Shown piece after piece: positions 3,735-64,000 of a DNA stretch of 64,000 bases. The position numbers and the translations under genes were made by a program. Location of the stretch: NCBI GenBank assembly GCA_002269645.1, contig NIVC01000617.1:446274-510273 (forward strand), given 5' to 3'. The notes under the pieces were generated by a model. It was not told the origin of the DNA, did no database searches, and was given only the letters and a program-made list of their open reading frames with translations. The stretch's first letter is position 1. Every line of letters begins with the position of its first letter. The DNA is from Macrostomum lignano (Eukaryota).

Positions 3735-4682
3735 CTAGCGAACCCGAAGTCCAGGGAGACCGACGCAGCTTTTCAGGACCTCGAGCAGCCTGCCGGGCCG
3801 GCGCAAACCGAACAGCGGGATGAGCTCGTGACAGAGCTGTCGGACGAAACAATCAAAACTCTGCCTAGACCAGTAACGGCGGCCTGCTCTCTGACGCTTT
3901 ACCGGAGCGATATCTCTGCGGATGAAGAACAACGCCTGCAGCAGGACCATTGACAGTGCGCTCCTCGGTTCTCGCTGCGAGTCTCGAAACAGCCGTCTCA
4001 TAGCCGTGAGCACTGACACGATTCCGTCCGACTGTCCAGCCAAAATATGCTTCATCAAACGATGGCGGAGCTGACGCGCAGCTGCCGATAACGACAGCTT
4101 TTCATCATCCCATATTGCTCCCGACGCGCGATGTGAGACAACCTCCTTGCTTTCCGGTACATCGATCTCCATAGCTTCTGACTCACTACTTCCGGAGGAG
4201 CCATCCGATGCCAGCAACTCGTCTTCTTCTTCTGTGTCGATGCTACACTCATCCGACTCCTCGCTCTCATCGTCGTCCGAGATTAGAATGTAGCCATCCG
4301 CTTCGTAATCGTTCCTCTGTCCCTGTCTCCCCTGCCTGAGACCAGCTTCCTTGCGCTGAGCTTCTTCAACTTCTCGCCTTTGCTGTACTCCCTCTTCGAT
4401 GTCCGCCGGCATTCTTACACCAGTAGGAGGTATGAACGTCATTGCGAAGGTTACAGCCTCGTCATACGGGATTGATTTATCGCCCAACTGGTCGTACATC
4501 GCTCGGCGATATGGACACGATAGAATTCTACCAGCAGTCTCAATTTCTTGGAAACGGCGTCCTGCGAGTTCCTTGTCCGGGTGCTTGTCCGGGTGCCAGA
4601 AGAGCGCTAGCTGTCGATAGACTCGCCTGATCTCGGCACGTTCGGCTGTGTGTCCGACTTGGAGGACAGCGTACAAATCCAT
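3735..4682 (-). CDS. J-domain (DnaJ/Hsp40-type) protein carried by the retrotransposon
   Basis: N-terminus MDLYAVLQV...EIRRVYRQLALFWHPDKHPD...RRFQEIETAGRILS..RRAMYDQLG with HPD at 4587-4595, then an acidic tract and a helical C-terminus. ATG at 4682 is preferred over the ORF-track start at 4715. Confidence 0.9.
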   Translation of the reverse strand: MDLYAVLQVGHTAERAEIRRVYRQLALFWHPDKHPDKELAGRRFQEIETAGRILSCPYRRAMYDQLGDKSIPYDEAVTFAMTFIPPTGVRMPADIEEGVQQRREVEEAQRKEAGLRQGRQGQRNDYEADGYILISDDDESEESDECSIDTEEEDELLASDGSSGSSESEAMEIDVPESKEVVSHRASGAIWDDEKLSLSAAARQLRHRLMKHILAGQSDGIVSVLTAMRRLFRDSQREPRSALSMVLLQALFFIRRDIAPVKRQRAGRRYWSRQSFDCFVRQLCHELIPLFGLRRPGRLLEVLKSCVGLPGLRVR

Positions 4683-5096
4683 CTGCAAAGCAACGTACTC
4701 AAACCTGCGACACACTGTCCCTGACTCCAGATTTTACTCCTGCTCCCCTCTTGCCAGAGCGTCATCTCCTCGGACCGTGGCCCTGCATCGTAAAGTCCCA
4801 GCGCAAATTCGAGTTTTCACCGGATGCCAGTCCGAATACCCTCCACCGATGCATAGATTTTGTAGGCAAAATTTGATTCTCGTCAAAACTTCGATGAAGA
4901 TGCGATTAAAATGACTTAATGACGCATTAACGAATTTCTTGAATGACGCATTGGCGAACTGCTCGTACTCATGATGAATGATGCATTGATGAAGTACTCG
5001 TATTTATGATGAATGACGCATTCGCGAAATATTTTTCTGGCTTTTAACGATAATCGCATATGAAACTGATGAGACTTCACGATGACGAGTAACCCA

Positions 5097-45511: not shown

Positions 45512-47422
45512 ATGGCTTTGCCAAGTCGTGCATCAAATAGACAGGTAGCCAGGGAAATGCAAGAAATACTACAAGAGCTTCCGACGATTGGGGCTACAAA
45601 TATTGAGGCTAGGCTAGATCTAGAAAATGTGATGGGACAAAATGAAGATACAAAGAGCAATGCTGAGCCTGAAGAGACATTCTTTGATGCAGTGGGTCCA
45701 ATGCCAATGGACTTTGATAGCCAAATGCATGCTCTTTTTGAGGAAGAAATGGATGAAGAAGTTGAAGAACAAGATGACTCTCTTGGCTATAATAGACCTC
45801 CGCCACTTACTTTGGTGCAAGAGTTACTATTGTTTTACATAACATTCAATATTACTAGTGCTGCCATGAATTACCTACTTCGGCTTTTGGCTCGTTTCTT
45901 CACTGACATACCCACTTCTGTCTACATGCTTAAGAGGCAGTGTCCAAGCACAGAGATCACGAGGTTCAATGTCAATAATGGTCATGTTGCCTTTCTCTCC
46001 ATTGTGGACAATTTGAAATTTTTACTTGATTCCAAAATCCTTACAATTCCATCTGGAATTACAAACTTCTTTGTTTCCTTAAGGGTAAATGTTGATGGTC
46101 TTCCTTTATTCAAGTCATCTAGAATCAATCTTTGGCCTATATTGATGCTAGTAAATAATTGTTTTAGACCTGTGCCATTTGGCCTTTTTTGTGGCATTGG
46201 AAAGCCTGACCTACATGTCTTCTTAGAAAGGTTTTGTTCTGAAATTGCAGGTCTACAGAATGGTTTTGACTATAATATGAAAAGAATTTTTATTAAGTCA
46301 ATTGTCTTTATCTGTGACACACCTGCTAGAAACTTTATTCAATGTTTGAAAGGTCATTCCAGTTATCTTGGCTGTAGTTGGTGTCGTCAAGTAGGAAATT
46401 ACACAGGTGACAGAATTTGTTTTTCTAATACCATTGCAGAGGCTCGAACAAATCAAGATTATGAACAAGGGCGTGAAAATAACCAACTTGGTATTTCTCC
46501 ACTAGCCAGGATTGTTCCAATGTATTCCAATTTTGTACCCGACCCAATGCATATTGTCTACTTAGGGGTTGTAAAGAAGTTGCTCAAATTTTACTTCCTT
46601 GGAGCAAAGCACATTCGACTTGCTTGCAAGTTGTCATCCCAATTAAAAGAGGAAATAAATAGAAAAATAATGTATATTAAGGAATTTGTTCCTTCAGATT
46701 TTCAAAGACGGCTTCGCACTTTTGCTGACATTGAATACTTTAAAGCAACGGAATTCCGCCAATGTCTTTTGTACTTTGGTCCGTTCCTTTTTAAGAATAC
46801 CTTGCCAAAGGTCTACTTTAATCATTATCTATTATTGCATTGGTCAATTTCAGTCCTTAATTCACCTGAGTACTGTGAAATTTATTTTGATGCTGCTGAG
46901 GCTTGTTTGAAAAAGTTTGTTGCTGAGGCACCAAGCCTATATTACAACAGTGTAGTTTCTTATAATTGGCATGCTCTGTTGCACCTTCCTGAGTTTGTGC
47001 AAATGTATGGCCCACTTGACACGTTTTCAGCTTTCCCTTTTGAAAACTACTTGCAATTGATCAAGAAGAGAATTCGTTGTACCAATCATGTTTTTGCCCA
47101 ATCTGTCAACCAGTTGTTGAATGTGAGATTTTTATATTCTAATGACAAGTTGGGTGACATTGGTTTTACTAATAAGAGTCCTAATAACTGTGCTATTGTT
47201 GATGGAAAGGTTGTCATTGTCACCAATTTAAATGATGGTCTTATTTCAGGCCAGGTTCTCACATTTGATAGAAGCCTTTATTCCTATCCATATCCATCAA
47301 AATCAATTGGCATAGGCTACTATAAGCATTCAAAGACATTTGTATCCAACTTGCAACCTTCTAAGAAGGCCATTCTAATTCCCTTTGGCGGAGACTATCT
47401 GGTCATTCCTTGCATCAAGTAA
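45512..47422 (+). CDS. EnSpm/CACTA-type transposase
   Basis: NVDGLPLFKSS..LWPI, FICDTPAR..GH..Y.GC..C, DPMH...LGV, KATEFR..LLY.GP, YNWHALLH....GPL..FSAFPFEN. Confidence 0.93.
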   Translation: MALPSRASNRQVAREMQEILQELPTIGATNIEARLDLENVMGQNEDTKSNAEPEETFFDAVGPMPMDFDSQMHALFEEEMDEEVEEQDDSLGYNRPPPLTLVQELLLFYITFNITSAAMNYLLRLLARFFTDIPTSVYMLKRQCPSTEITRFNVNNGHVAFLSIVDNLKFLLDSKILTIPSGITNFFVSLRVNVDGLPLFKSSRINLWPILMLVNNCFRPVPFGLFCGIGKPDLHVFLERFCSEIAGLQNGFDYNMKRIFIKSIVFICDTPARNFIQCLKGHSSYLGCSWCRQVGNYTGDRICFSNTIAEARTNQDYEQGRENNQLGISPLARIVPMYSNFVPDPMHIVYLGVVKKLLKFYFLGAKHIRLACKLSSQLKEEINRKIMYIKEFVPSDFQRRLRTFADIEYFKATEFRQCLLYFGPFLFKNTLPKVYFNHYLLLHWSISVLNSPEYCEIYFDAAEACLKKFVAEAPSLYYNSVVSYNWHALLHLPEFVQMYGPLDTFSAFPFENYLQLIKKRIRCTNHVFAQSVNQLLNVRFLYSNDKLGDIGFTNKSPNNCAIVDGKVVIVTNLNDGLISGQVLTFDRSLYSYPYPSKSIGIGYYKHSKTFVSNLQPSKKAILIPFGGDYLVIPCIK

Positions 47423-50634: not shown

Positions 50635-51624
50635 CTTGGTGGCATAGTAAAAAATTGTCCCTTTCGTCGAAACTTCGCGCTAACTTAAATTTTAACTGCT
50701 CCGAGACCGAAATGCTAGTGTAGTACAACTGGGTTTGAAGGCCGCGAATTTGAACAGTTTCACTACAGCAATTTAACGTCTTCAGTTCACTCGCAGCGCA
50801 GCGCCTTACAATTGTTCACTCGATTGCAGCGCGCTTTTCAAACTGGTGCGATTATATTTTAATTAGACAACGATTAAAATAATTTATAATTAATATTTGC
50901 TTTATTTTCAAGGGTCAAAAAAGTAGAAATTAATAACATAATAATGCTATTTGCAATTGCTATAGTTACTATATAGCAACAATTAAATATTTAGTGCAAT
51001 TTTAACAGAACATTTTCAGCCGCACTACACTAGGCCTAATCAAATTGACCTAACAACTATAAAATACTTGTCGAACTGTCTCCAACCTGCACCCTATTAG
51101 TGACTGCTTTGGTGGCCCACCACGCGTTGCTGCAATGTTCTATTTTGTAAACACTAAATAAACACTTATTATTCCTTTCCATCTGCTGCCATTGAGCAAT
51201 TTTGTATTTGATGTAAAATGATGCACACCCGGTCTTTGTGTCATTGAATTTTCAGACGGGATCGGGCTGTCTAAATGTACATGCGTGACTGCGTGTACAC
51301 TGATCTTCGGCTACATTGTAGCACATGCATGTTTGTACTCGCTTTGTGCTTCGTCATTTATATCAGCTCGGAAAGTGAAACGAAAAGCTCTGGATGAGTC
51401 CGATCGTCAAATCCGATCAGAATCCGAATGGATTTCCCGGGACAAATTTCCACTCGGTTTCCGAGCTGCATTTCCGATCGGAATCCGACCAAGCTTTTTT
51501 AGTGGGGAGTGCCTGCATCGGTTGGAGTGGATATCATGTGAATTTCTTTAAAAGGATTGTACCTCTCAGGGTAATTGAGAAATTCTATGCTTTTTGGGGA
51601 CGGATTTGTCTCCCAAATAACGCC

Positions 51625-52172
51625 CCTCGATACTAGATTTGGCGCCTCGATGCTAGATCTGGCGCCTCGATACTGGATTGGGCGCCTTGATACTAAATTC
51701 AGCGCCTAGATATTAGATCTGGCGCCTTGATGCTAGATGTGGCGCCTCGATGCTAGATCTGGCGCCTCGATACTAGATCTAGCGCCTCGATGTTAGATCT
51801 AGCGCCTCGATACTGGACTGGGCGCCTCGATAGCTCGTACTAGATCTGACGCCTCGATACTAAATCTGGCGACTCGATACTAGATTGGGCGCCGCGATAC
51901 TAGATCTGGCGCCTCAATACTAGATCTAGCGCCTTGATACTAGATCTAGCGCCTCGATACTCAATCTAGCGCCTGGATACTAGATTTGGCGCCTCGATAC
52001 TCAATCTAGCGCCTGGATACTAGATCTAGCGCCTCGATACTAGATCTGGCGCCTCAAAACTAGATCTAGCGTCTTGATGCTAGATGTGGCGCCTCGATAC
52101 TAGATCTAGCGTCTAGATTCTAGATTTAGCGCCTCGATACTAGATCTGGCGCCTCGATACTAGGTCTGGCGC
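51625..52172 (-). repeat. 20-bp array, right arm (inverted relative to 43408-43892), cut by the Polinton
   Basis: CGCCTCGATACTAGATCT(G/A)G units ending abruptly at TGGCGC|AGTAGT. Confidence 0.93.
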
Positions 52173-52437
52173 AGTAGTGGAGAAAAAGACGAGTACAGAC
52201 CCAGAGCACTTTTTTAATGACCGTTTTAAGGGTCTAGAGGGGGGACACGGGGGGTAAATAAAAAAAACACATCTAATCACCATTAACACAAAAAGACATC
52301 TAAAAACCCCCTAACAATAAAAATCATTCCCAACACTTCCAAACACTCCCCAACACTCCCCTCGCGTCCCCCCTCTAGAACCTTATAAACGGCCATTAAA
52401 AAAGGTCTGATCTGTACTCGTCTTTTTCTCCACTACT
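52173..52437. repeat. Terminal fold-back: 27-bp perfect, ~80-bp imperfect inverted repeat
   Basis: 52173-52199 AGTAGTGGAGAAAAAGACGAGTACAGA is the exact reverse complement of 52411-52437; similarity extends to about 52255 and 52355. Confidence 0.92.
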
Positions 52438-52534
52438 ACACATCCCAACACTCCCCAACACTTCTAACACTTCCAATTCTCTATAACCCCTCGCCCGCGC
52501 CGCAGGCGCGAAGGGTCTTTTTCTGTTATAAAAA

Positions 52535-52849
52535 ATGAACCGAGTTTACACCTTTTCTGTTAGTGATACTTTTGAGACTGTTGCTAAAAATGCAGAGATA
52601 ATAAAACAACATATTTTGAATGGAATAATTGATGAAGTTTATTTAAAATATGACGACAAGCACGACCTAAAACTTTATCCATTAGAGCTAGATGAGATGT
52701 ATGATTTAGAACAAGAGGGTGAGTTAATATTTCAACTTGGAGATTATTTAAATTCGGATGATTGGGAGGTTAGATCAACAGATTCCGAATCAACAAATAG
52801 TTCATATGAAACCAGTGATTCAGAGAATGAAAGTGAAATTTTTATGTAA
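52535..52849 (+). CDS. Polinton small acidic protein, unknown function
   Basis: 104-aa ORF with AAAAAATG start; similar to the next ORF. Confidence 0.65.
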   Translation: MNRVYTFSVSDTFETVAKNAEIIKQHILNGIIDEVYLKYDDKHDLKLYPLELDEMYDLEQEGELIFQLGDYLNSDDWEVRSTDSESTNSSYETSDSENESEIFM

Positions 52850-52852
52850 AAA

Positions 52853-53083
52853 ATGGAATTATTTAACAGACCCCACTTTTCAATAGTTGAATCAACTCAA
52901 ACAATATTTAATGCACTTGATTCAATAAAAAAATTAATAAAGGATGAAATACTAGACGAAGTATATATATTTCCATACATAAAGATATATCCGCTTGAAA
53001 TTGGAGAATTAGAGTATATTTGGGATAAGGGGGAGCAAAGTCTTCTTTTAGCACAATGTTTAAATTGTGAAAAAAATATTTAA
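52853..53083 (+). CDS. Polinton small protein, paralogue of the preceding ORF
   Basis: Shares IK..I...I.DEVY...K.YPLE..E with 52535-52849. Confidence 0.6.
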   Translation: MELFNRPHFSIVESTQTIFNALDSIKKLIKDEILDEVYIFPYIKIYPLEIGELEYIWDKGEQSLLLAQCLNCEKNI

Positions 53084-53086
53084 AAA

Positions 53087-53311
53087 ATGAACTATTATTC
53101 TATAACAGAAACGACATTTATTGTGAAAAATATATATAAAAAAATGAAGGTAAACTATTCCTACATCGGAAATGTGCCGGTTAATGAACTTAATCAAAAT
53201 TTAAGTCTAATCACTGTTGAACAAATGTCAATAATAATATTAGTAACAATAATAGTAATAATATTGTTTTTGTTTGTTATAAAAAATTTACTACCCTGTT
53301 GCCTTAAGTAA
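53087..53311 (+). CDS. Polinton small membrane protein
   Basis: C-terminal hydrophobic stretch IIILVTIIVIILFLFVI. Confidence 0.6.
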   Translation: MNYYSITETTFIVKNIYKKMKVNYSYIGNVPVNELNQNLSLITVEQMSIIILVTIIVIILFLFVIKNLLPCCLK

Positions 53312-53321
53312 TTGTTCAAAC

Positions 53322-54936
53322 TTAGTTTGCAGATAATATCTGATTCTCATAAAAAGAACCCAATATTTCTTCACCATCCTTATCAGCAATTATATAGGTT
53401 GTAGGATTTGTATTTAAAACTTTACTGATGGTAAATTTCTCACTTATTTTCCAATATCCTTTTCTTCCTTTTTCAAACTTATCTTTCCATTTATAGATAT
53501 AAACAGAATCACCAACCTTAAAAGATTTCTTTTTAGTTTTATTTTTTTCAAATTTTCCAAAAGTAACTTTAACGTTATCAGGATTGTTATAAGCTTGTTG
53601 AGGAGCCATCTTTATGGTCGAATGATATGAATTGTTATAATCTTTTACAACGTCTGGTAATATTTTTACCCACTTTTGGTTACCATTAAGACTAAACTGA
53701 AACCACAATTTCTTACCTAAAGTTCGATTAAATCTTTCTATTAATGCGTTTTTACTTTCTCCATAAATAGAATAAATTTTATTAATATACTCCCCATTCG
53801 CGTCTTTTTTCCTTTCTTGTCCTTTTTCAAAATTATATAATTTATACATATGAGGATTGTAAAATTCTTTTCCCTCATCAACACACAACCGTTCACTTTT
53901 TTCTCCAAGACTTCTAAAAGCAGCAGCAACCTCCTCTCCCTTTTTGGATTTTAAAGGAACAGCCCACGCGTATCGAGTAAAACCATCTAATATGGTTAAG
54001 ATATATTTATATCCTCTTTCGTTCGGCATCGACATTAAATCAGCATACCAAATTTCATTCTTTTTGAAGTTCATGATTTTTCTATAAAATTTCGGTTTTC
54101 GATATTCTTTATGAAGAATCTTTGCCTCATCAGAACTTAACCCACCACCACTTAATAATAAACACTCGACACAATTATTTCCATGTTGGTTGTAATTAAT
54201 TCCCAAACCAAATTTAACTTTAGACTGCAAGATCTTTTTAACCATCCACCTAGTTAATCTTTGCCCTACCGATAATCCCTGCAAGTTATCTAATCCTTGA
54301 ATCATTTTTTGATCGGCTTCATGTTTTAATCTTAATGCTTCCTCGGGCGGGTTCTTGTCAGCATCTCTATATGCTAAGTCGTGATAGTATGCTAACCAAT
54401 CAATCCCATTTATTGGAATTGAATCAGCTTTTGGAGTATTGTCAGGATTTAATCTTAAATCCAAACGAGTGCCGGGTAGTTTACCCCCAATCTTTCGAAT
54501 GAGGCTGGAGCACACCTTAAGCGGATAAATTACCGCCCATCTCCGTCTGCTCTCTGAACCTTCTCCTTATATTTAAATACTTAGGAGCTTGGCTGCGCAT
54601 TGCCACCATGTCTTCAAGCTTTTTACCATTGGGAAGAGGAGTTACCTCTGTTCCTTCAAAAGATTTCTCAATTGAAGTGGTACTTGAAGCTGTATGACGG
54701 GTTTCACGCAATTTGGAGACATCGCCACTAATAGTGACTAGCAGTAGCTTTGCTTCTACCACTCAGGCCACGGGATAACCTGTGAAGTTCATTGATGGCA
54801 GGTGTAGCTCACCCGTATACCTCCCAGTAGTAAATATTGGTGGTAAGCTTGTTAATCCTTTTTGAACATCTAACAATCCTCCTTCAAATACTAATTGGTC
54901 GAACCTTCGGTTCGCATGCGTCGCATGATTGCTCAT
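53322..54936 (-). CDS. PLA2-integrase fusion in two exons (54936-54778, 54476-53322), 437 aa after splicing
   Basis: Joined reading GELHLPSMNFTG|PGTRLDLRL...DWLAYYHDLAY...ADQKM (parvovirus-type PLA2), then an rve DDE core (WYADL, CVDEGKEF, IERFNRT) and an SH3-like tail. Confidence 0.88.
54477..54777 (-). ncRNA. Group I intron ribozyme, IC1-like, 301 nt, no internal ORF
   Basis: Hand-folded P1 with U.G at the splice site, P2, P2.1, P3 GUCUCC/GGAGAU, P4 UGCGUG/UGCGCA, P5abc with A-rich bulge and GAAA loop, P6/P6a with CCUAAG/UAAGG receptor, P7 G-A-GAGCA/UGCUCC, P8 GGGCGG/CCGCUU, P9.0 and P9 with GAAA loop. Confidence 0.9.
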
Positions 54937-55483
54937 TTTTTATAGCCTTAAAAATACATGATAGCACCAATTGTTTTGCAAATTCTTCAATTGTTGGTTG
55001 TTTAACAAATTTAGTTTTATTATCAATAGCAGCTAAGTATCTTTTATTTGTCCAATGTTCAGACTTTTTCATATGATCTTCGTCTTTGTAATTAAATGAA
55101 GAAGCAGGAATAAAATGATCAATATGTAAAGCACCACCATAGTCTTTTGGAACATAATAATGTTTTGTGAAATTTAACCAATCAATAAAGAATTCAATTG
55201 AGCAACCAAGGTAATCAATAGTATGATTATTTTTTTGAGCATTATTTGATTTTAATAGTTGATTTATTCTATTTCGTGAGGTGATAATAAGTTTGTAATT
55301 TTCATCAGTGTGATATTTATTTTTTATATATTCTTTATTGTTTTTATTCCAAAGTTTTGATATAACTTTCTCACAAGATCGACAATCATTTCTAAATTTT
55401 TTTGAATCATTTCTCCATCTAAAAAAATCTTTAGTCATTGGTTTCTCTTCTTTACATCGACTACAAATCTTTTTAGTTTCCAT
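54884..55483 (-). CDS. Free-standing HNH (beta-beta-alpha-metal) endonuclease with N-terminal zinc finger
   Basis: CSRC...CRSC N-terminus; LHIDHFIP...HWTN...L...DNKTK resembles HNH proteins of large DNA viruses and phages. Confidence 0.78.
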   Translation of the reverse strand: METKKICSRCKEEKPMTKDFFRWRNDSKKFRNDCRSCEKVISKLWNKNNKEYIKNKYHTDENYKLIITSRNRINQLLKSNNAQKNNHTIDYLGCSIEFFIDWLNFTKHYYVPKDYGGALHIDHFIPASSFNYKDEDHMKKSEHWTNKRYLAAIDNKTKFVKQPTIEEFAKQLVLSCIFKAIKNEQSCDACEPKVRPISI

Positions 55484-55510
55484 TTTATAAAAAATAAATT
55501 TAACAATTAA

Positions 55511-56188
55511 TTAAACACCAGTATGTCCAGCAGCTTTCGCAGCAGCTAATACAAGTTTTCTAGGAGTTTTAAATCCTTCACCAACAGCTGGTTTGTTATT
55601 TATAGAAATAATAATTCTTTTATACAAACTTGTATTTTTAACAGCTCCTCCTAACTCATCATAAAAAATTTTTGCACTTACTAATTCATCCCTAGTATAT
55701 AAATCCGGGTTAAATTTTACCCTAGGGTTCATAATAATATTATATGCTCCACCCAATTCTGTATATAGTTCATTTCGATCTTTATCAACGTTACCAATTC
55801 GATAATTATTATTACCTAAATCTGTAACAGCAATACTAGGTGGTACTCTTGGAAATTGTTGCCGATCAACTCCATCCCTAATCTCTTCAGCCCTAATCTC
55901 TATAACTCTCAATTGTGCTTGAGCAACACCATAAGCAGGCGGCTCATCATCCAAAATTTCATCCTCTTTTGGCTCAGTATTTTTAGCAATTTTTTCCAGA
56001 AGGTCTTTATCTGTTTTTTCTAGTTCACTAATTTTCCCCGTAATAGGATTAACAAAAGGAGCAGCAAATTTTTCACCAGCTAATTGTATTCCTAACTTTC
56101 TTTTTTGTAAATTTCTAACAAAATCAGAATATCTTTGCTTCTCTTTATAAATCGCTAACTCTCCATCAACGTCCATAAATTGACTCAT
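55511..56188 (-). CDS. Polinton protein, unknown function
   Basis: 225-aa ORF with AAAAAATG start, divergent from the major capsid gene. Confidence 0.7.
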   Translation of the reverse strand: MSQFMDVDGELAIYKEKQRYSDFVRNLQKRKLGIQLAGEKFAAPFVNPITGKISELEKTDKDLLEKIAKNTEPKEDEILDDEPPAYGVAQAQLRVIEIRAEEIRDGVDRQQFPRVPPSIAVTDLGNNNYRIGNVDKDRNELYTELGGAYNIIMNPRVKFNPDLYTRDELVSAKIFYDELGGAVKNTSLYKRIIISINNKPAVGEGFKTPRKLVLAAAKAAGHTGV

Positions 56189-56222
56189 TTTTTAACATAA
56201 AAAACTTTTTTAACTTAAAAAA

Positions 56223-57695
56223 ATGGCTGAAACAAAAACTATGTGGAGTGATAAATTTCATTTCAAAAAGCACCGACAGTATATTAATGAGGTCAGAGCA
56301 AGAGATTTAAATTATACCCTACCAACAAGTGATAATTCAAATAACTTTACTACTGGAACGGTAACTTTTGACATCGGCGCAACCAACACTATATTGGATA
56401 TGAAAAATGCATTTTTCCGTGTTAGATGGTTGTATACTAGAAATGATGGAACTGCTCTTGCAGCCGGAGATATCGCAGATCGATCCGGAATAATAATAGA
56501 AAATGATTGGTTTTATAAATGTTTTTCCCAAGCTCAACTAACTGTTAATGGTGCTGAGGTTGAGACATCATCAAACCCCGCAGAGATTAATGGAGTTTTG
56601 AAACATTTAAATTATACTTATTTATCAAAACAAGTTGGTGATAATGTTGGGTGGATGCCGGATAAAGGTAACGGTCAAGCAGTAGTTTTCCCTAATGTAC
56701 AAAACGCAGCTGGTGCAGATACTGCAGCTCTAATTGTTTACCTTAATACCAATATAGTTCCAGTTGTAACCCCTATGACTAATACAAAAGCTATTAACAC
56801 CGGTTTTATAGATCGTCAGAATAAATTCCCAGTCGCGGTTTTAACCACAGCAACAGCATATGAGCAGGACTTTTCAATCTTTCCACTATTTGGGTTTTTC
56901 TCACCAAATCGGGTATGGAAAGGATTAAAATTTGGGATACAGTTGCAAATATCTGGTGGATATCAGCCTAGGATACTTTATGGAACCTCAATTTCAACCG
57001 ATATAGCAGTTCGTATAGATTCAATTCAATTAGTCGTACCAACTATTGAGGTAACAGCCCCACTTTTAAAACACATCGATAATCAGTTAACGCATGATCA
57101 GGAAATATTTTATTTGAATCGTAGACACTTTATGCGAACCATTAATAACAATCAGGATTCATTCCAGTGGCAAATACTGACATCAAAACGTCGGGTGAGA
57201 TATATTTTTGTTTGGTTTAAGATAACAAATAGAAGGAGTAAAAGAGCAAATGGGGATTTATATTGGCTTCAATCCGGTGCCATAGCAGAACAAGCAGCCA
57301 CCGCAACAGACAATGCGGCTGCAGCTATTAACGAGTTTAATGTTCAGAATATCCGCCTGCAGGTTGATGATCAATATTATCCGGTTAAAGACCCCCTAAA
57401 TTTAAATATAGCAAATAATGATGTTAATGATTTTATAAAATATTATCAAGATTATGCCAAAAATGAAGCATATGCCGTCCCTCAGTACACACCCACAGAG
57501 TTTCTAAACATCCATCCAGTGGTTGTTTATGATCTAACGGCACAGAAAGAAAACATAGCCAATATTGGACTTAATTATATGTTAGAGATTAATAAAACCG
57601 GTAATCAGGCAATCGACGCCCACGTATTGTTTCTAGAGGAATATATGTCAATTGCTAAAGCTGATGGCACGGTTGTTCGGGACGCGCCACTTTAG
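56223..57695 (+). CDS. Major capsid protein (double jelly-roll, PY-like)
   Basis: 490 aa, beta-rich, FSQAQLTVNGAEVE motif, located next to the ATPase and penton genes. Confidence 0.8.
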   Translation: MAETKTMWSDKFHFKKHRQYINEVRARDLNYTLPTSDNSNNFTTGTVTFDIGATNTILDMKNAFFRVRWLYTRNDGTALAAGDIADRSGIIIENDWFYKCFSQAQLTVNGAEVETSSNPAEINGVLKHLNYTYLSKQVGDNVGWMPDKGNGQAVVFPNVQNAAGADTAALIVYLNTNIVPVVTPMTNTKAINTGFIDRQNKFPVAVLTTATAYEQDFSIFPLFGFFSPNRVWKGLKFGIQLQISGGYQPRILYGTSISTDIAVRIDSIQLVVPTIEVTAPLLKHIDNQLTHDQEIFYLNRRHFMRTINNNQDSFQWQILTSKRRVRYIFVWFKITNRRSKRANGDLYWLQSGAIAEQAATATDNAAAAINEFNVQNIRLQVDDQYYPVKDPLNLNIANNDVNDFIKYYQDYAKNEAYAVPQYTPTEFLNIHPVVVYDLTAQKENIANIGLNYMLEINKTGNQAIDAHVLFLEEYMSIAKADGTVVRDAPL

Positions 57696-57778
57696 TGTCG
57701 CAGTGCAAAGCACGTCGCCCCCGCTGTAAGCGGTGCAGGTCTCCGACCGTCGCGCCTATTTAAATTATTTCTTTAAAA

Positions 57779-58543
57779 ATGGTAAAGGCAAAACACGATA
57801 AGATATTTCCAAATGATCCTTTTCTTTGTTTAGTAATCGGTGGATCAGGTAAAGGAAAAACACACTTTGTTTACGATTTATTAACAACAGATGGAATGTT
57901 AGACTATAATAATTTAATAATTTATACTAACAAACCTAGAATAAAATATTATGAATTTCTTAAACATGGATTAAAAAACAAATTAAAAAAAGATGTCTTG
58001 TTTAGAATGTTAAGAGCATATGAGCAATATGAGGATGATGACGAACCGCGATTTACACTCGATGACATTGAGGATTTATGTAAAACAATGGCACAACAAC
58101 CAGAAAACATCACCGAACGAGCCCCAACTGTTAGAGTATCAACCCGATTAGCCTATGATCAAATTCCAAAACATGATAAAACACTAATTATTTTTGATGA
58201 TTGTATTAATGACGGTGATCAAGAATTGCAAAAGGAAATTTTTGTTAGTGGTAGAGGAGATGGAATTGGAGCTTTTTATCTAACACAGTCCTTTAGAGAA
58301 TTAGAATCGATTATAAAAAAGAATGCAAGTTGTTGTGTAATGTTTGATTTAGATAATTATGATTTACAAAATATACACGCTAGATTTAATCCTGGGTTGG
58401 ATGCAAAACCATTTAAAAGTATGTGTAAAAAAATTTGGGATGATAGCCAATACAAACATATTTATATCAATCCGAGGTTAGAAAGGAAAAATCGAATCTT
58501 AAAAGATCTTATAAAAGAAGACGATGAGGAAGAAGAAGAATAA
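57779..58543 (+). CDS. A32/FtsK-like packaging ATPase
   Basis: Walker A GGSGKGKT, Walker B LIIFDD, SGR, LTQS. Confidence 0.93.
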   Translation: MVKAKHDKIFPNDPFLCLVIGGSGKGKTHFVYDLLTTDGMLDYNNLIIYTNKPRIKYYEFLKHGLKNKLKKDVLFRMLRAYEQYEDDDEPRFTLDDIEDLCKTMAQQPENITERAPTVRVSTRLAYDQIPKHDKTLIIFDDCINDGDQELQKEIFVSGRGDGIGAFYLTQSFRELESIIKKNASCCVMFDLDNYDLQNIHARFNPGLDAKPFKSMCKKIWDDSQYKHIYINPRLERKNRILKDLIKEDDEEEEE

Positions 58544-58557
58544 TTCCCACTATAAAA

Positions 58558-59343
58558 ATGGCTACAAATTTAGATACTATAAAACAATTGGTAGATCGAA
58601 CTAATTCAAAATTTAGTACAACATTACAGTTTATAATGACAACCAGTGAACAACGTATTCAATTGCGCGATCCGTTACAACTCGATCAAAGCCTAAGTTA
58701 TCAAATAGGTTTAATACTATTTTCGGTTTTCAACATGCCTCAATTAATTAATGCAACAAATAATCAATTTAGATATTCTAAAGATTCCGGAGCCAATTGG
58801 ACAACATTTAGCGTTAACCCAGGAGCATATTCTTATACCGATTTGAATGCTTATATAGAAGGAGAATTAACATCTAACGGCGATTGGGTAGCAGGCGCAA
58901 TTGTTATAGGTGTTGATTTACCATCTGGCAGATTCACACTATCACTCGAATCCGGATATCAGGTTGATTTCACAATTGCAAATTCACTCAGAACCATACT
59001 TGGATTTAATTCCCGAATAGTTACCACATCAAGCACCGGTGATACAGTTGGAAATATAGAGGGCGGAGTAAATACAATTAATATAACAACCGACATTTCA
59101 AACGGTGGTTATATAACAGACGATAACGGAGTTTTGGTTCAACGTGGAATTATTTATTCAATCCCATTTCTTGCTGTTCCAATTGGAGAGAAAATGATTG
59201 TATCACCTCAAACCCCAATATATTACCCATTAAATCAATATAATGTTCAATCAATTTATATTAGGATTGTAGATGAAAGCGATAGATTAATAAGTTTTGG
59301 TGGGCAGTCAATAACAATAATTTTACGGATAAAACAGGTTTAA
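58558..59343 (+). CDS. Minor capsid protein (penton, PX-like)
   Basis: NNQFRY...PGAY...N, LRTILGF, IIYSIP...P.GEK...P...YYP, SIYIRIVD...I.F.G pattern. Confidence 0.85.
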   Translation: MATNLDTIKQLVDRTNSKFSTTLQFIMTTSEQRIQLRDPLQLDQSLSYQIGLILFSVFNMPQLINATNNQFRYSKDSGANWTTFSVNPGAYSYTDLNAYIEGELTSNGDWVAGAIVIGVDLPSGRFTLSLESGYQVDFTIANSLRTILGFNSRIVTTSSTGDTVGNIEGGVNTINITTDISNGGYITDDNGVLVQRGIIYSIPFLAVPIGEKMIVSPQTPIYYPLNQYNVQSIYIRIVDESDRLISFGGQSITIILRIKQV

Positions 59344-59387
59344 TCGTTCCGAAGGAACGCGGACTTTGTCCGTTTCCTATAGTAAAA

Positions 59388-59567
59388 ATGGGTAATAATA
59401 ATAATAATTTACTAAAAAAACAATCAGAAAAAGTTAAAAAAGCTGAAGATAATTACGAACTAGAACTAGCAAAATTAAGGCAGTTACAAGCTGATAAAAT
59501 AAGAAAGGAATTGTTAAAACCCACACCTACTAAACTAACTAAAACCAAGAGTTTTTCAGGAACATAA
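59388..59567 (+). CDS. Small basic 59-aa ORF absent from the ORF track
   Basis: Manual translation MGNNNNNLLKKQSEK...SFSGT-stop; AAAAATG start; fills the gap between the penton and protease genes. Confidence 0.55.
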   Translation: MGNNNNNLLKKQSEKVKKAEDNYELELAKLRQLQADKIRKELLKPTPTKLTKTKSFSGT

Positions 59568-59568
59568 A

Positions 59569-60066
59569 ATGACCATGACGTGGGATGATTTTAAACAACG
59601 ATATGGAACAGACACAACAAGCAATATCGAATTAACAAATTGGGCGCGGCAGTTAAAAATAAAACCATTTAGATGTGTTATGCGGGATGAGATAAAAGAC
59701 TTACCACAATATGGATCTTTCATTGTTAATATTGAAACAACAAAAGAAAATGGTGTTCATTGGTCAGCAGTTTATTCAAAACCAAAACTTGTTTATTTTT
59801 TTGATTCATACGCGCTTCCTCCGTTACAGGAAATAAAAGATAAATTTAATCATACTAAAAATCGTTTATGTGGAGATTATCACGAACAATTTCAAACATT
59901 TGATAAAAGTTATTGCGGGCAAGCGGCGTTGTATTTTTTATATAAAATTAATAACTCGAAGGAAACCCCCGAAGTATTTAAGATGATCATGCAAAGCATG
60001 CGTGCCGATGGCACGATCGGACGGAGTGCGCGAACCTTCGGTTCGATTTTAGACTCTATAAAATAG
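59569..60066 (+). CDS. Adenain-like cysteine protease
   Basis: GVHWSAV, YFFDSYA.PP, Q.....YCGQ catalytic pattern. Confidence 0.92.
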   Translation: MTMTWDDFKQRYGTDTTSNIELTNWARQLKIKPFRCVMRDEIKDLPQYGSFIVNIETTKENGVHWSAVYSKPKLVYFFDSYALPPLQEIKDKFNHTKNRLCGDYHEQFQTFDKSYCGQAALYFLYKINNSKETPEVFKMIMQSMRADGTIGRSARTFGSILDSIK

Positions 60067-60076
60067 ACAGTAAAAA

Positions 60077-62113
60077 ATGTTATTTTCTGGAACACCCTCA
60101 TGGAACGGAACATCAAGTACTGGTGGTGGTACTTCTGGTGGAATAAGTGTTACATTCGGAGATAACCGATATATTAATGAAGATGAAGGTTATAAAAAAA
60201 GTGAAGTTGATACTAAACTAAATTTAAAAAGAAATGTTGCAGATTCCTATACCAAAACTCAAATAGATAATTCCCTAAATTTAAAACGGAACGTAGCCGA
60301 TTCATATACAAAAACAGAGGTTGACAATGGGTTAAATTTAAAAAGAGATATAACTGATTCTTATTCTCGAACTCAAATAGATGATTCATTAAATTTAAAA
60401 CGCAATACGGCCGATTCTTATACCAAAACTGAAGTTGATAATTCCCTAAATTTAAAACGGAATGTTGCTGATTCCTATACCAAAACTGAAGTTGATAATT
60501 CCCTAAATTTAAAAAGAGATATAACTGATTCCTATACCAAAACCGAAGTTGATAATTCCCTAAATTTAAAAAGAGATATAACTGATTCTTATAGCAAAAC
60601 TGAAGTTGATAATTCCTTAAATTTAAAAAGAGATATAACTGATTCCTATACCAAAACGGAGGTTGATAATTTAGTTGGGGGTGGAGCCCCAAAACAAGAT
60701 CGATTCCAAACGGTTGAAACCGGACACGTACCAACTATGGCAGCTTGGAGTGGAAATGGTTTTGCAATATCCGCAAACACAGCATTTAATACAACTGATT
60801 TTGCAAGTTGGAAAGCGTTTGATGGAAATGATTCAACAGATTGGGCAACAAATAATACTCAAACCGATTATTGGATTCAAGTCCAATGCCCTTCCGCAAT
60901 AATGTGTTATAAAATTGATTTACGTGGTAGGCCATCACCTTCAACCGAGCACCCAGCATCATGGCGATTTGAGGGAAGTAATGACAATACAAGTTGGGAC
61001 GTATTAATACCTGCGGATAGTTCTGTAGCAATAAATAACTCAACTCAAACAATTAATGTCACACAAAATTTTGATAAAACATATTCATATTTCAGATTGT
61101 TCTGTCTTACATCAACTCGGGTTCAACCAACCCGGGTCTGTCAACCTTCCAGATTTATAGACAGACGTTTACAATTCTTGATTTAAATTTGGGAGTGGTT
61201 AATCAATCAATTGATATGGGAGGTAATACAATTACTAATATCTCTACTATAAACAATAACAGTTCTGTTGTTACTAAAGGTTATGTTGATACGCGAGTAA
61301 CACAAACGGCGGATGGCCGAATGTCTTTTAACGATAAAATAAAATTGGATGGAATACCTGCAATCGATGCCGCTTTGTACGAGCCTGTATTTGCAATTGG
61401 ACTGGATATCAAAACCCAACCACAGCCGGTGATATTTTTCCAACTGGAAGTTTTGTTGGTAGCGCTACTTATATTGATTATCAAAATGGAGCCAGAATTA
61501 CTGATGAAGCAAGTGGTCAGTCTGGAGCGTTGCAATTTAATTTCACCCATTTTCGTAATATCTCCGCCTCCTTCTATTTCCGAGTTGCTAATGCTACAGG
61601 AAGTGGTGCTGATGCGGTTTGGTTTTATGCATATTGTCACGAACGTCCAACAAGTGAATTTGGATCCGGGTTAACAACCCGCGCCGGCTTGATTGTGTTT
61701 GCGAGTGAATGGCATGATAGAGTTGGGGTTGTTTGGAGCAATATAAAATCAGACGGTGCAACAGCTCGTAATGATGTTCTTAATGACGCAGATCAAACTA
61801 TAACTATGCTAATATTGATAACGGCGATTGGCATCTTTTGAATTAATATTTTAAATCAAAGAGTTTGGTATCAAATAAGCACATACAATGTATCAGCTAA
61901 TACATATACGCTAATTGGGCAAAACTTTTTACATATGAAGTGGAACTTGGGGAGATTTAGATAAAACGGGAACCTTATGGTTTTGGTGCTCGAACTGGAG
62001 GAGCAGATGCCGCACATTTTATTCGTGGTGCAGCCGTTTGTGGTAGCACATCAGCAGGATATGATTTTGCTGCGACCGCATATTTGGAACGGCCACAAAC
62101 CGAAATCGCCTAA
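60077..62113 (+). CDS. Fibre/spike-like protein with several frameshifts: shaft repeats, discoidin-like and L-type lectin-like domains
   Basis: 19-aa SYTKTEVDNSLNLKR(D/N)xxD repeats; AWKAFDG...W..EGSND domain. Alternate frames continue SGSTNPGLSTFQIY, GSGADAVWFY, DNGDWH and GFGARTGG..AHFI to TAA at 62111-62113. Confidence 0.7.
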
Positions 62114-62556
62114 GCTAAAGCTAAGTCGCGAACCAAAAGGTTGATACCTTAAATATTTCTATATAAAATGGCTTTTAGTAGAATCCTCGATGCGGCAAAT
62201 AATGTTATTATTCTATTCCTAAACAAGAATCAATATAAAAACATTCAAATCTCATACCAAATTTTTATTTAGTACTGTAAATGTTCAGGATAATAAAGAA
62301 CTTCAAGAATTAATTAAATTGTTAAAAATCATATTATACTTCAAGAGTTTTGGAAATAGGATTTAAATGGGAGAAAAAAAAGAATCACTCCAATACAATA
62401 CCTATTAAGCTCCGGGCAAATACCCCAAAGAGCGTGGGAATTCATTTTGGTGTATTAAAAATAGACGAGAATGTCGGTATCTGAAGCAGATAAATGGGAA
62501 CGCGACGGTTCAACCAACGTAAAGGTCAGATGTTAAGTAATGTTGATCGATAAATT

Positions 62557-62994
62557 ATGATTATGATTTATATGCTAAAAAGTAAGAAGAGTTTCAAACC
62601 ATATAAGAAATATGGATTTTTCAATATTGGATTTGGAAGCTTATCAATGTTATGTGTAATCGTTTTAGGTATTTTACAATCTATTCCAACTCTTAATTTA
62701 TCTCAATTATTTTTAGGTATTTCAATTGGCTCAATATCAGGTTTTGAATTGATCAGGAACTTATCAATACTTTTAGCAATTAAATTATATCTTAAAAAAA
62801 GAAAGGAAAAATATAAATCTTTAAGAGATGTTGCAAAACAATATAAAAATCAATTATATTTATATGTGCAAAAAATATTGGATGATGGAGAGATAACGAT
62901 TCATGAATTATCAACCGCGGTTGAATTATATGAAAAATATTTAAAAGATAGAAATAGAATTTTGATGTTGAAACTTTTACCGATATGGAATTGA
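62557..62994 (+). CDS. Polinton two-TM membrane protein (resembles the adintovirus GasderminX-type ORF)
   Basis: Two hydrophobic segments, then K..KY.....A......L...VQKILDDGEIT..E.....E.YEKY. Family assignment is from memory, not a search. Confidence 0.5.
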   Translation: MIMIYMLKSKKSFKPYKKYGFFNIGFGSLSMLCVIVLGILQSIPTLNLSQLFLGISIGSISGFELIRNLSILLAIKLYLKKRKEKYKSLRDVAKQYKNQLYLYVQKILDDGEITIHELSTAVELYEKYLKDRNRILMLKLLPIWN

Positions 62995-63208
62995 AGGAAT
63001 TGCGTTTGGACAAACCCAAAGCTCCACTATAGATACATTAGGTATTTACGAACCGAAACTATTGTAGAACTTCAGGTTGTTTAGTTTTTCTAATGCATAT
63101 GTTATATATTCTTCCCAAAGTGGTAACTCTCTTCTGATCCTAGGTTTAAATTTTTTATCAATACATAAAAATTCCAATGACTTTTTCAATAACATTTCGT
63201 TAGGTATG

Positions 63209-63559
63209 TTACCTATCCTTATAAACTTTGTATTCTCTCGAATAAGAAAATTGAAATAATATCCAACTAAAATTAAAATCCTTTCGGTCTTTCGAACTTA
63301 ATCCCTTTCCTTTATTTAAATGGAAAAAGTTATTATATAAATAAACATTATTTCCGGGAATTAAAATTGGATTGGAAATGTCTCTTGTAAGATTTCTTAA
63401 AATTGTGTTTTTAAAATAGTAATATGAGTTTTCAATCTTTTTTATTTTTTCAAATTGATATATTTTAGAACATGAATAACACATATGATATATATCTCCG
63501 TTGCTGTTTGCTCTGTGCATAGTCACATTACATTTATTACAAACATAAATGTCTTTCAT
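63209..63559 (-). CDS. Small zinc-ribbon protein
   Basis: CNKC...CYSC pairs; A-run before the ATG. Confidence 0.45.
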   Translation of the reverse strand: MKDIYVCNKCNVTMHRANSNGDIYHMCYSCSKIYQFEKIKKIENSYYYFKNTILRNLTRDISNPILIPGNNVYLYNNFFHLNKGKGLSSKDRKDFNFSWILFQFSYSREYKVYKDR

Positions 63560-64000
63560 TTTTTTGTTATTTTTTTAGATTAAAAATGGAGAGCTGGTTC
63601 AAAACCGATTCTAATGTGATTAATTATCTCACACCCAATATGTTGGAGAATAAAGAATATAATATTATATGTTTGAGACAGGTTAAATTTATTGGGCTTC
63701 AATCATATTTTTACAATTAGATGGGAAAAAATTTTATGTCTAAGCGGAGATGATGTTAAAAATTTTCCTTTTTAGTTATTAATAAACCAAAAGCGTTTGT
63801 TATGAAATACAGTATGAGGGTGGGTTGCAATTTAAACTAAAACAACAAAAAATAAAAAAGAGTGATAGGACTGTAAAATTGGCTTCGGTTGGGAGGATGA
63901 CCGAATAAGTTTAAATTTTTTATAAGAAAATGGAGACATCGTGCAAAGCACGCGTATCGATGATACGATAAAAATCCTTATCACTAAAGAGGCGCGAACT

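Follow-up and report, generated by a model that had tools for sequence, protein, structure and literature searches.

Collaborative, or intronless, homing has been described for T3/T7-like phages, for F-CphI of cyanophage S-PM2 and for the terminase locus of ICP1 (PMC2988022; PMC10448857; here and below, statements on cited work refer to the accessible parts of each source). A similar layout, with a group I intron that lacks an open reading frame (ORF) inserted in a conserved motif and a free-standing nuclease gene next to the exon, is found in a Polinton of Macrostomum lignano, which was analyzed in a window of 64,000 nucleotides (assembly GCA_002269645.1, contig NIVC01000617.1, positions 446,274 to 510,273 of the forward strand). 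There, the intron splits a gene for a parvovirus-type PLA2 fused to an integrase, and an HNH nuclease gene adjoins the first exon. As in phage loci, where HNH and PD-(D/E)XK nucleases replace each other (PMC10448857), two nuclease classes alternate in one slot. In contrast to phage collaborative homing, the carrier is an integrated Polinton in an animal host, the HNH gene fails co-inheritance with the intron, the likely homing partner comes from a restriction-enzyme family with a 5-bp site, and intronic and free-standing nucleases coexist in one genome, with the tree favouring the intronic form as the older one.

Long recognition sites are regarded as a requirement for homing endonucleases. 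The present locus, in a protein gene of a virus-like element of an animal, suggests another route to specificity, with avoidance across the genome leaving a short site unique. Restriction-type folds encoded in group I introns are known from I-Ssp6803I and I-Bth0305I; I-Ssp6803I reads a 17-bp site, whereas uniqueness in the Polintons apparently comes from purging a 5-bp site, and in the same source Eco47II stands among the bacterial type II restriction families and not among the homing families (PMC3424549). Genome-wide loss of a short palindrome resembles restriction-site avoidance in prokaryotic viruses (PMC6286503), but here the candidate nuclease is element-encoded, no methyltransferase was found on the element contigs examined, and an intron covers the last site. 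Nuclear group I introns are said to occur only in rRNA genes of microbial eukaryotes (PMC3679873). In protist polinton-like viruses (PLVs), ORF-less group I introns of about 300-380 nt occur in protein genes and HNH genes are present as well (PMC12220804); unlike in M. lignano, the hosts are protists only, the introns lie in a short gene upstream of the major capsid protein gene, and the accessible text names neither a linked nuclease nor a target site. For helicases and replicases of PLVs, collaborative homing has been suggested (PMC11296320; 10.64898/2026.10.13.758929), and HNH domains lie inside nematode Polinton polymerases (PMC10748475). For a parvovirus-like PLA2 that accompanies rve integrase and A32 ATPase in an animal Polinton, PLA2X of alpha adintoviruses is a precedent (PMC8502044), but the PLA2 studied here is integrase-fused and intron-split, and neither trait is mentioned in the accessible part of that source. 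In the literature covered, main texts that were largely openly accessible, we found neither an animal Polinton with a group I intron nor a homing nuclease of the Eco47II-like kind.

Two nucleases in one slot beside the intron

We favour, with moderate confidence, the reading that an Eco47II-like nuclease and not the HNH protein is the homing partner of the intron, in elements purged of its site, with the intron covering the one site that coding forces and with the HNH gene being exchangeable. The parts of the locus are as follows.

55483-54884, minus strand: HNH ORF, 199 aa, zinc-finger HNH (beta-beta-alpha-metal), free-standing
54936-54778, minus strand: exon 1 of the PLA2-integrase gene, 53 codons, ending ...NFTG, with its start within the 3' end of the nuclease ORF
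54777-54477, minus strand: group I intron, 301 nt, type 1a, ORF-less, final base A
54476-53322, minus strand: exon 2, remainder of the parvovirus-type PLA2 and in-frame rve integrase, 384 aa
54475-54780, minus strand: split GGN/CC target, GGT at 54780-54778 and CC at 54476-54475, Gly and Pro codons parted by the intron

The first-pass annotation had described a zinc-finger HNH gene directly upstream on the same strand, overlapping exon 1 and ending about 100 nt from the splice site of an ORF-less intron, and this anatomy is directly seen. The overlap (54884-54936) measures 53 nt, 106 nt separate the HNH stop from the 5' splice site, no ATG-initiated ORF of at least 60 aa was found within the 301-nt intron, and Rfam assigns the insert to RF00028 (Intron_gpI; 64.1 bits, cut-off 50, E 2e-14, on window DNA taken as locus L031). 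A scan of a 14-kb stretch of the window missed the intron, and a smaller scan found it. The 106-nt spacing is kept in 59 of the 66 full-length HNH copies and in 17 of the 25 full-length copies of the Eco47II-like gene.

A census of the same genome gave 170 distinct PLA2 loci, 139 in family A and 31 in family B. Candidates scored numbered 150 of 504 and 150 of 784, so that both censuses are partial, and the family-B loci counted are the best-scoring ones. Three loci with no exon-2 match (L027, L139 and L140) were left out before counting, and two family-A loci (L199 and L213) stayed unresolved. Among the 137 resolved family-A copies, the slot holds HNH in 100 and the Eco47II-like gene in 37, with both in none and an empty slot in none; the two occupants are mutually exclusive. 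The Eco47II-like slot protein has 167 aa and is unrelated to HNH. The intron is present in 134 of these 137 copies, 37 of which lack HNH, and absent from three, all of which carry HNH (in two of them as a full-length ORF with an intact junction). A contig of run X3 skips 617 nt over the HNH gene (window 54899-55517; side 30 nt), possibly representing an empty-slot or other-slot allele.

Family B, with about 58% PLA2 identity to family A, shows a different distribution. Of its 31 loci, 20 are intron-less without a nuclease match and 11 have, at the same site, an intron that encodes the Eco47II-like ORF in its P2.1 loop; HNH is absent from 31/31. Further family-B copies add four with the Eco47II-like ORF in the same-site intron and a decayed one with an ORF-less intron. 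Outside the genome, 10 of 22 Eco47II-like homologues read through into the core of the window's intron family, and no match to the Eco47II-like protein was found in plasmids and phages. In the tree (midpoint root), the free-standing alleles of family A fall within the intron-encoded ones (support 92/90). With moderate support, and depending on the midpoint root, this speaks for an escape out of the intron rather than an entry into it. Since empty, intron-with-nuclease and intron-plus-free-nuclease states are found in one genome, the debated order of mobile-intron origin becomes testable.

GGNCC sites and the Eco47II-like nuclease

Pfam RE_Eco47II (PF09553) matches all six members of alignment A4 with E values from 4e-7 to 2e-3; at a cut-off of 25.9 bits, P0004 lies above (26.2 bits) and P0005 below (18 bits). 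The D...(E)xK motif is present in 24 of 25 full-length copies. Eco47II homologues have been assigned the specificity GGNCC (PMC12376442; 'without certainty' in PMC10305163), and any Gly-Pro codon pair spells GGNCC. The window contains 96 GGNCC sites. The last is at 51114, and the 11.8 kb of element is free of them, as are three other element stretches, each 8-10 kb long. Across four non-homologous element stretches (28.4 kb) one GGNCC was observed compared to 30.8 expected (P 1.3e-12), and this sole site is the intron insertion site of an intron-less copy. Observed and expected counts in the same 28.4 kb were 0 and 17.9 for GGWCC, 1 and 12.9 for GGSCC and 27 and 30.9 for CCNGG. Synonymous resampling never reached the observed GGNCC count (0/300), and the loss extends to the encoded proteins, in which Gly-Pro dipeptides number 1 versus 11.7 expected, with Pro-Gly at 17. 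Host flanks are at or slightly below expectation (observed/expected 12/10.3, 11/15.0, 15/18.7 and 23/34.0).

Site counts around the locus itself were also obtained. The junction of intron-less copies is GGNCC in 3/3 cases in family A and in 17 of 20 in family B. In three intron-less family-B copies (L155, L156 and L157), of which at least L155 is decayed, the junction reads GGC-CAA without GGNCC. No GGNCC was found around the locus in the 37 copies with an Eco47II-like slot gene or in the 11 family-B intron copies, and the 97 intron-bearing HNH copies contain 11 stray sites, all in three copies with broken nuclease ORFs. In family B, linkage with intron presence reaches r2 = 1.0 at positions -6, -4, -1 and +3 and decays to both sides, as co-conversion would give. 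For C5 methyltransferases (PF00145), the genome yielded 12 matches, none of them on the contigs of the examined elements; unlike in restriction-modification pairing, the Eco47II-like gene stands on these contigs without such a partner.

We propose that the Eco47II-like PD-(D/E)XK nuclease keeps the GGNCC specificity of its family and serves as the homing partner, from the P2.1 loop of the intron in family B and as a free-standing gene 106 nt upstream in family A. The elements would have removed GGNCC, including Gly-Pro dipeptides, everywhere examined except in the PLA2 motif, where coding forces GGNCC. With the site purged elsewhere in the element, a 5-bp cutter would make one break in an intron-less sibling; in a cell with two elements, the intron-less one would be broken at its only GGNCC and repaired from the intron-bearing copy, so that the intron spreads. 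By splitting the site, the intron would confer immunity and stand in for a methyltransferase, and, if spliced, it would restore the PLA2-integrase frame. The HNH gene would alternate with the Eco47II-like gene in the slot, which it holds in most family-A copies, and would be swapped as a cassette independently of the intron while benefiting from its protection, so that its target need not be the intron site. Near fixation of the intron in family A may have opened the slot to turnover, with HNH alleles now swapping there; a comparable path has been suggested for phage loci (PMC10448857). This reading predicts the cut site to the base. The purge together with the apparent conversion peak would imply that these Polintons come together and recombine as free DNA when they share a cell, a point of relevance to the question whether animal Polintons are active viruses. 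We give an even chance to the wider statement that animal Polintons use a restriction-type 5-bp cutter as a homing endonuclease, rendered single-site by an element-wide purge of GGNCC, down to Gly-Pro dipeptides, instead of by a long recognition sequence, with an often A-ending intron in a nuclear-integrated protein gene replacing the methyltransferase and a modular, fast-changing HNH, of which an intron-encoded form also exists, competing for the slot.

Several points weigh against the Eco47II-like nuclease as homing partner. The layout, the distribution of the parts, the loss of the site, the linkage pattern and the retained catalytic residues are observed; cleavage, specificity, splicing and homing are what we infer from sequence. 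The Pfam match is weak at the E values given, and a specificity defined at family level may not carry over. A 5-bp cutter would cut host DNA as well, as the 96 sites in the window illustrate, and host tolerance is unaccounted for. As the purge is also seen in nuclease-free copies, an outside GGNCC nuclease could be its cause. GGCC (17 observed, 32.3 expected) and GGNNNCC (20 and 30.5) are somewhat low too, and GGNCC, which ranks first in a scan of 1792 patterns, is not significant alone after correction; depletion is strongest for GGNCC, not wholly limited to it. The linkage gradient in family B could reflect two old clades, since clade structure can mimic co-conversion. The assembly repeats haplotypes (Wnt exons appear 2-4 times), and because of these repeats and the relatedness of copies, census counts and r2 values are not independent events and the counts are inflated. 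The test of independence between HNH and the intron has low power because only three family-A copies are intron-less. Finally, a relative of the HNH protein is itself intron-encoded (the P0013 cluster, below).

The HNH protein and alternative explanations

The HNH ORF has two CxxC pairs, and D122, H123, N146, N155 and K158 are invariant among 106 aligned relatives. Catalytic and zinc residues are retained in 65-66 of the 66 full-length copies, the DH pair in 65 and both Asn residues in all 66. PHROG 1035 ('endonuclease VII') matches the window protein (E 2.4e-11), a Pfam search with it gave no match and a PDB sequence search gave no significant nuclease match. In the predicted model, with a predicted local distance difference test (pLDDT) value of 92.8, strands 119-123 and 147-151 and helix 152-158 carry the HNH residues; an earlier model from 17 sequences had a pLDDT of 54. 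Fold comparisons were weak, with a best Foldseek E of 0.07 and Cas9 HNH domains in the top rows, and with the Hpy99I zinc finger as best match in the VIA fold search (Z 5.2, root mean square deviation 2.3, 41 aligned residues). By profile, invariant residues and confident model the protein is an HNH nuclease with predicted activity, and it is probably a second, active, free-standing nuclease of homing type. Its family comprises 38,376 cluster representatives at E <=0.001.

HNH alleles fall into 16 clusters with 55-93% identity between clusters and are mosaic. The ratio of nonsynonymous to synonymous polymorphism (pN/pS) is 0.57 for HNH versus 0.08 for exon 2 at similar pS (0.28 and 0.21, respectively), and within HNH it amounts to 0.74 in the zinc finger, 0.65 in the linker and 0.08 in the C-terminal helix. 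A full-length ORF is missing in 34 of 100 HNH copies. The picture is that of an exchanged cassette with changing parts predicted to contact DNA, in which relaxed and diversifying selection are not separable. About 30-nt in-frame modules, some of them palindromic, occur in 0-2 copies in the overlap of HNH and exon 1 (window 54900-54935) and lengthen both proteins.

The first-pass annotation had proposed that HNH and intron form a collaborative homing pair aimed at the conserved PLA2 motif, and this pairing is partly supported. A selfish-nuclease slot adjoining a real group I intron, retained catalytic residues and an intron-encoded relative with 40% identity stand on its side; a co-inherited unit was not found. 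HNH and intron are distributed independently, as the 37 intron copies without HNH and the three intron-less copies with it show (Fisher p 0.56 in family A, with low power from three intron-less copies); the first-pass annotation had itself named such independence as an outcome that would speak against the pair. Allele distances in 51 copies gave Spearman correlations of 0.11-0.17 between HNH and intron and of 0.76 between the two halves of HNH; HNH distances versus flanks and intron ranged from 0.09 to 0.37, compared to 0.46 for the two flanks with each other across HNH. Of the segments compared, the HNH alleles show the lowest correlation with the intron. No flanking site was linked to slot type among 72 de-duplicated copies (r2 <=0.24 at any site), and among 1792 gapped 4-base patterns scanned, none stood out clearly as an HNH target. 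As to the PLA2 site, its GGNCC signature fits the Eco47II-like slot occupant, which in family B is intron-encoded exactly there.

It is unlikely that HNH is itself the enzyme that cleaves alleles without the intron, at or close to the junction, and that it spreads with the ORF-less intron, perhaps alongside the Eco47II-like enzyme. The fixed 106-nt geometry, the kept catalytic residues and near fixation of the intron (134/137) in an HNH-dominated family would agree with such a role, but HNH in all intron-less family-A copies, intron copies without HNH and the low allele correlation do not. Silent positions at the junction differ in the HNH copies without intron, which also carry singleton HNH alleles and could, for this reason, be immune. 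The P0013 cluster (40% identical to window HNH) is encoded inside an intron of the window intron's family, its reading frame continuing into an intron core with 58% protein-level identity to that of the window; it keeps the idea alive at lower odds. P0013 is the only intron-tailed HNH cluster among 167 proteins tested and is not the sister of family-A alleles in the tree. A parallel arrangement is seen in a giant-virus contig from IMG/VR (L259, 3000-5139), in which a ubiquitin gene with three intron-like inserts of the window intron's family has immediately behind it a free-standing HNH that belongs to the same broad family as window HNH (E 1.5e-15). Another contig (L257) has an intron-like core and then HNH. 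Viral contigs searched with five protein queries for genomic context gave no confirmed locus, and among 169 metagenome stretches one (L263) has HNH directly after a polymerase-like ORF, with no intron or PLA2 in its 1234 nt.

It appears more doubtful still that the slot nucleases are weapons against co-infecting elements, against a helper or competitor virus, or against the DNA of the host late in replication, with purge and intron as self-protection in place of a methyltransferase and intron spread as a by-product. From a true 5-bp restriction activity one would expect a purge throughout the element, no methyltransferase match lies on the element contigs, the fast-varying zinc finger and linker of HNH, compared to exon 2, and its mosaic alleles resemble an arms race, and interviral competition has been raised for a PLV HNH (PMC12220804). 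However, the nuclease is intronic in family B and in 10/22 outside homologues, the usual mark of homing, and linkage peaks on the insertion site; weapon and homing roles are not mutually exclusive. That HNH is carried along as a passenger with relaxed selection, or serves as a housekeeping nuclease in packaging or replication and sits beside the intron by chance, is very improbable, since an unrelated nuclease replaces it in 37 copies, family B lacks it, its catalytic and zinc residues are kept and its C-terminal helix is constrained, notwithstanding its overall pN/pS, the copies without a full-length ORF (broken ORFs being expected in integrated copies) and the HNH proteins of phage packaging cited in PMC12220804.

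The group I intron and the surrounding element

In the window intron, P1, P2, P3, P4, P6a and P7 are all fully paired. P1 is formed by CAGGU with GCCUG (5/5 pairs), in which the final U of the 5' exon pairs with G (U.G), and P7 is GAGCA/UGCUC in the window versus GACUU/AAGUC in family B, with compensatory changes. The insertion lies between the Gly and Pro codons of the PLA2 motif, and its boundaries agree with natural copies that lack the intron and in which F[TA]G|PGT is read without a break. Spliceosomal and group II readings were dropped because the intron ends do not fit and because Rfam assigns group I. Natural group I introns ending in A are known. The last base is A and not the canonical G in the window copy; among 110 type-1 introns it is A in 82 and G in 28, and it is G in 11/11 family-B introns. 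Of the A-ending type-1 copies, 54 have an open exon 2 of more than 270 codons. A- and G-ending type-1 introns share the same P7 5' strand, and adjacent exon-2 codons tend to covary with the last base.

Family-A introns comprise variants 1a (82), 1b (28) and type 2 (24), each found with both nucleases. Variants 1a and 1b differ in one 30-nt block (position 148). Type 2 introns (L106, 3309-3642, and 23 other family-A copies) use the same 5' splice site and resemble giant-virus introns; their 3' splice site is ambiguous, and the residues past the junction differ from PG. A decayed, ORF-less family-B intron (L244, 1810-2290) has an about 30-nt tandem array in P6 and has lost the 3' core. A viral contig (L262) carries two introns that Rfam assigns to group I and that are related to those of the Polintons (3815-4138 and 4596-4981, minus strand), with a 432-aa ORF between or across them. 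In contigs of four sequencing runs no exon-exon joint was found at the intron boundaries, and contigs of runs X2 and X3 cross the splice junctions unspliced; since an absence cannot be read from contigs and the runs may contain DNA, they speak neither for nor against splicing.

A domain search placed the PLA2 and rve integrase domains of exon 2 in one frame, which adds to the earlier picture, and an uninterrupted 452-aa family-B homologue confirms both the fusion and the Gly/Pro insertion point. PLA2 and rve integrase form a single ORF in both families (window 53322-54936), so splicing of the intron would gate integrase expression. The remaining features of the element are listed below.

52173-64000, no strand: Polinton body within the window, continuing past the contig end
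52173-52437, plus strand: left end of the element, beginning AGTAGT, with 27-nt perfect inverted arms at 52173-52199 and 52411-52437
55511-56188, minus strand: ORF of 225 aa, function unassigned, the constant upstream neighbour of the nuclease slot
56223-57695, plus strand: ORF of 490 aa, probable major capsid protein as judged from size and position, no family match above cut-off
57779-58543, plus strand: A32-like packaging ATPase (Pox_A32, E 4.3e-07)
60077-61186, plus strand: fibre-like protein with F5/8 type C domain (domain match)

We take the AGTAGT end to be a Polinton terminus. Together, rve and A32 in the window, the left terminus and Wnt genes in the host genome make up the set of an animal Polinton. 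The polymerase of the window element lies beyond the contig end, and DNA_pol_B_2 was detected in a family-B copy (L253). In a family-A copy (L255, 32-1354), an endonuclease VII domain (E 2.9e-07) is found in an ORF of the polymerase region, as in some Polinton polymerases. Directly upstream of an intron-less family-B PLA2 gene lies a Prim-Pol-like ORF (L097, 2635-3312; E 0.001). A tandem array of about 20-nt units (window 51630-52172) adjoins the left end of the element, and on the host side an ORF of 636 aa (window 45512-47422) with a weak DUF4218 match is presumably transposase-like.

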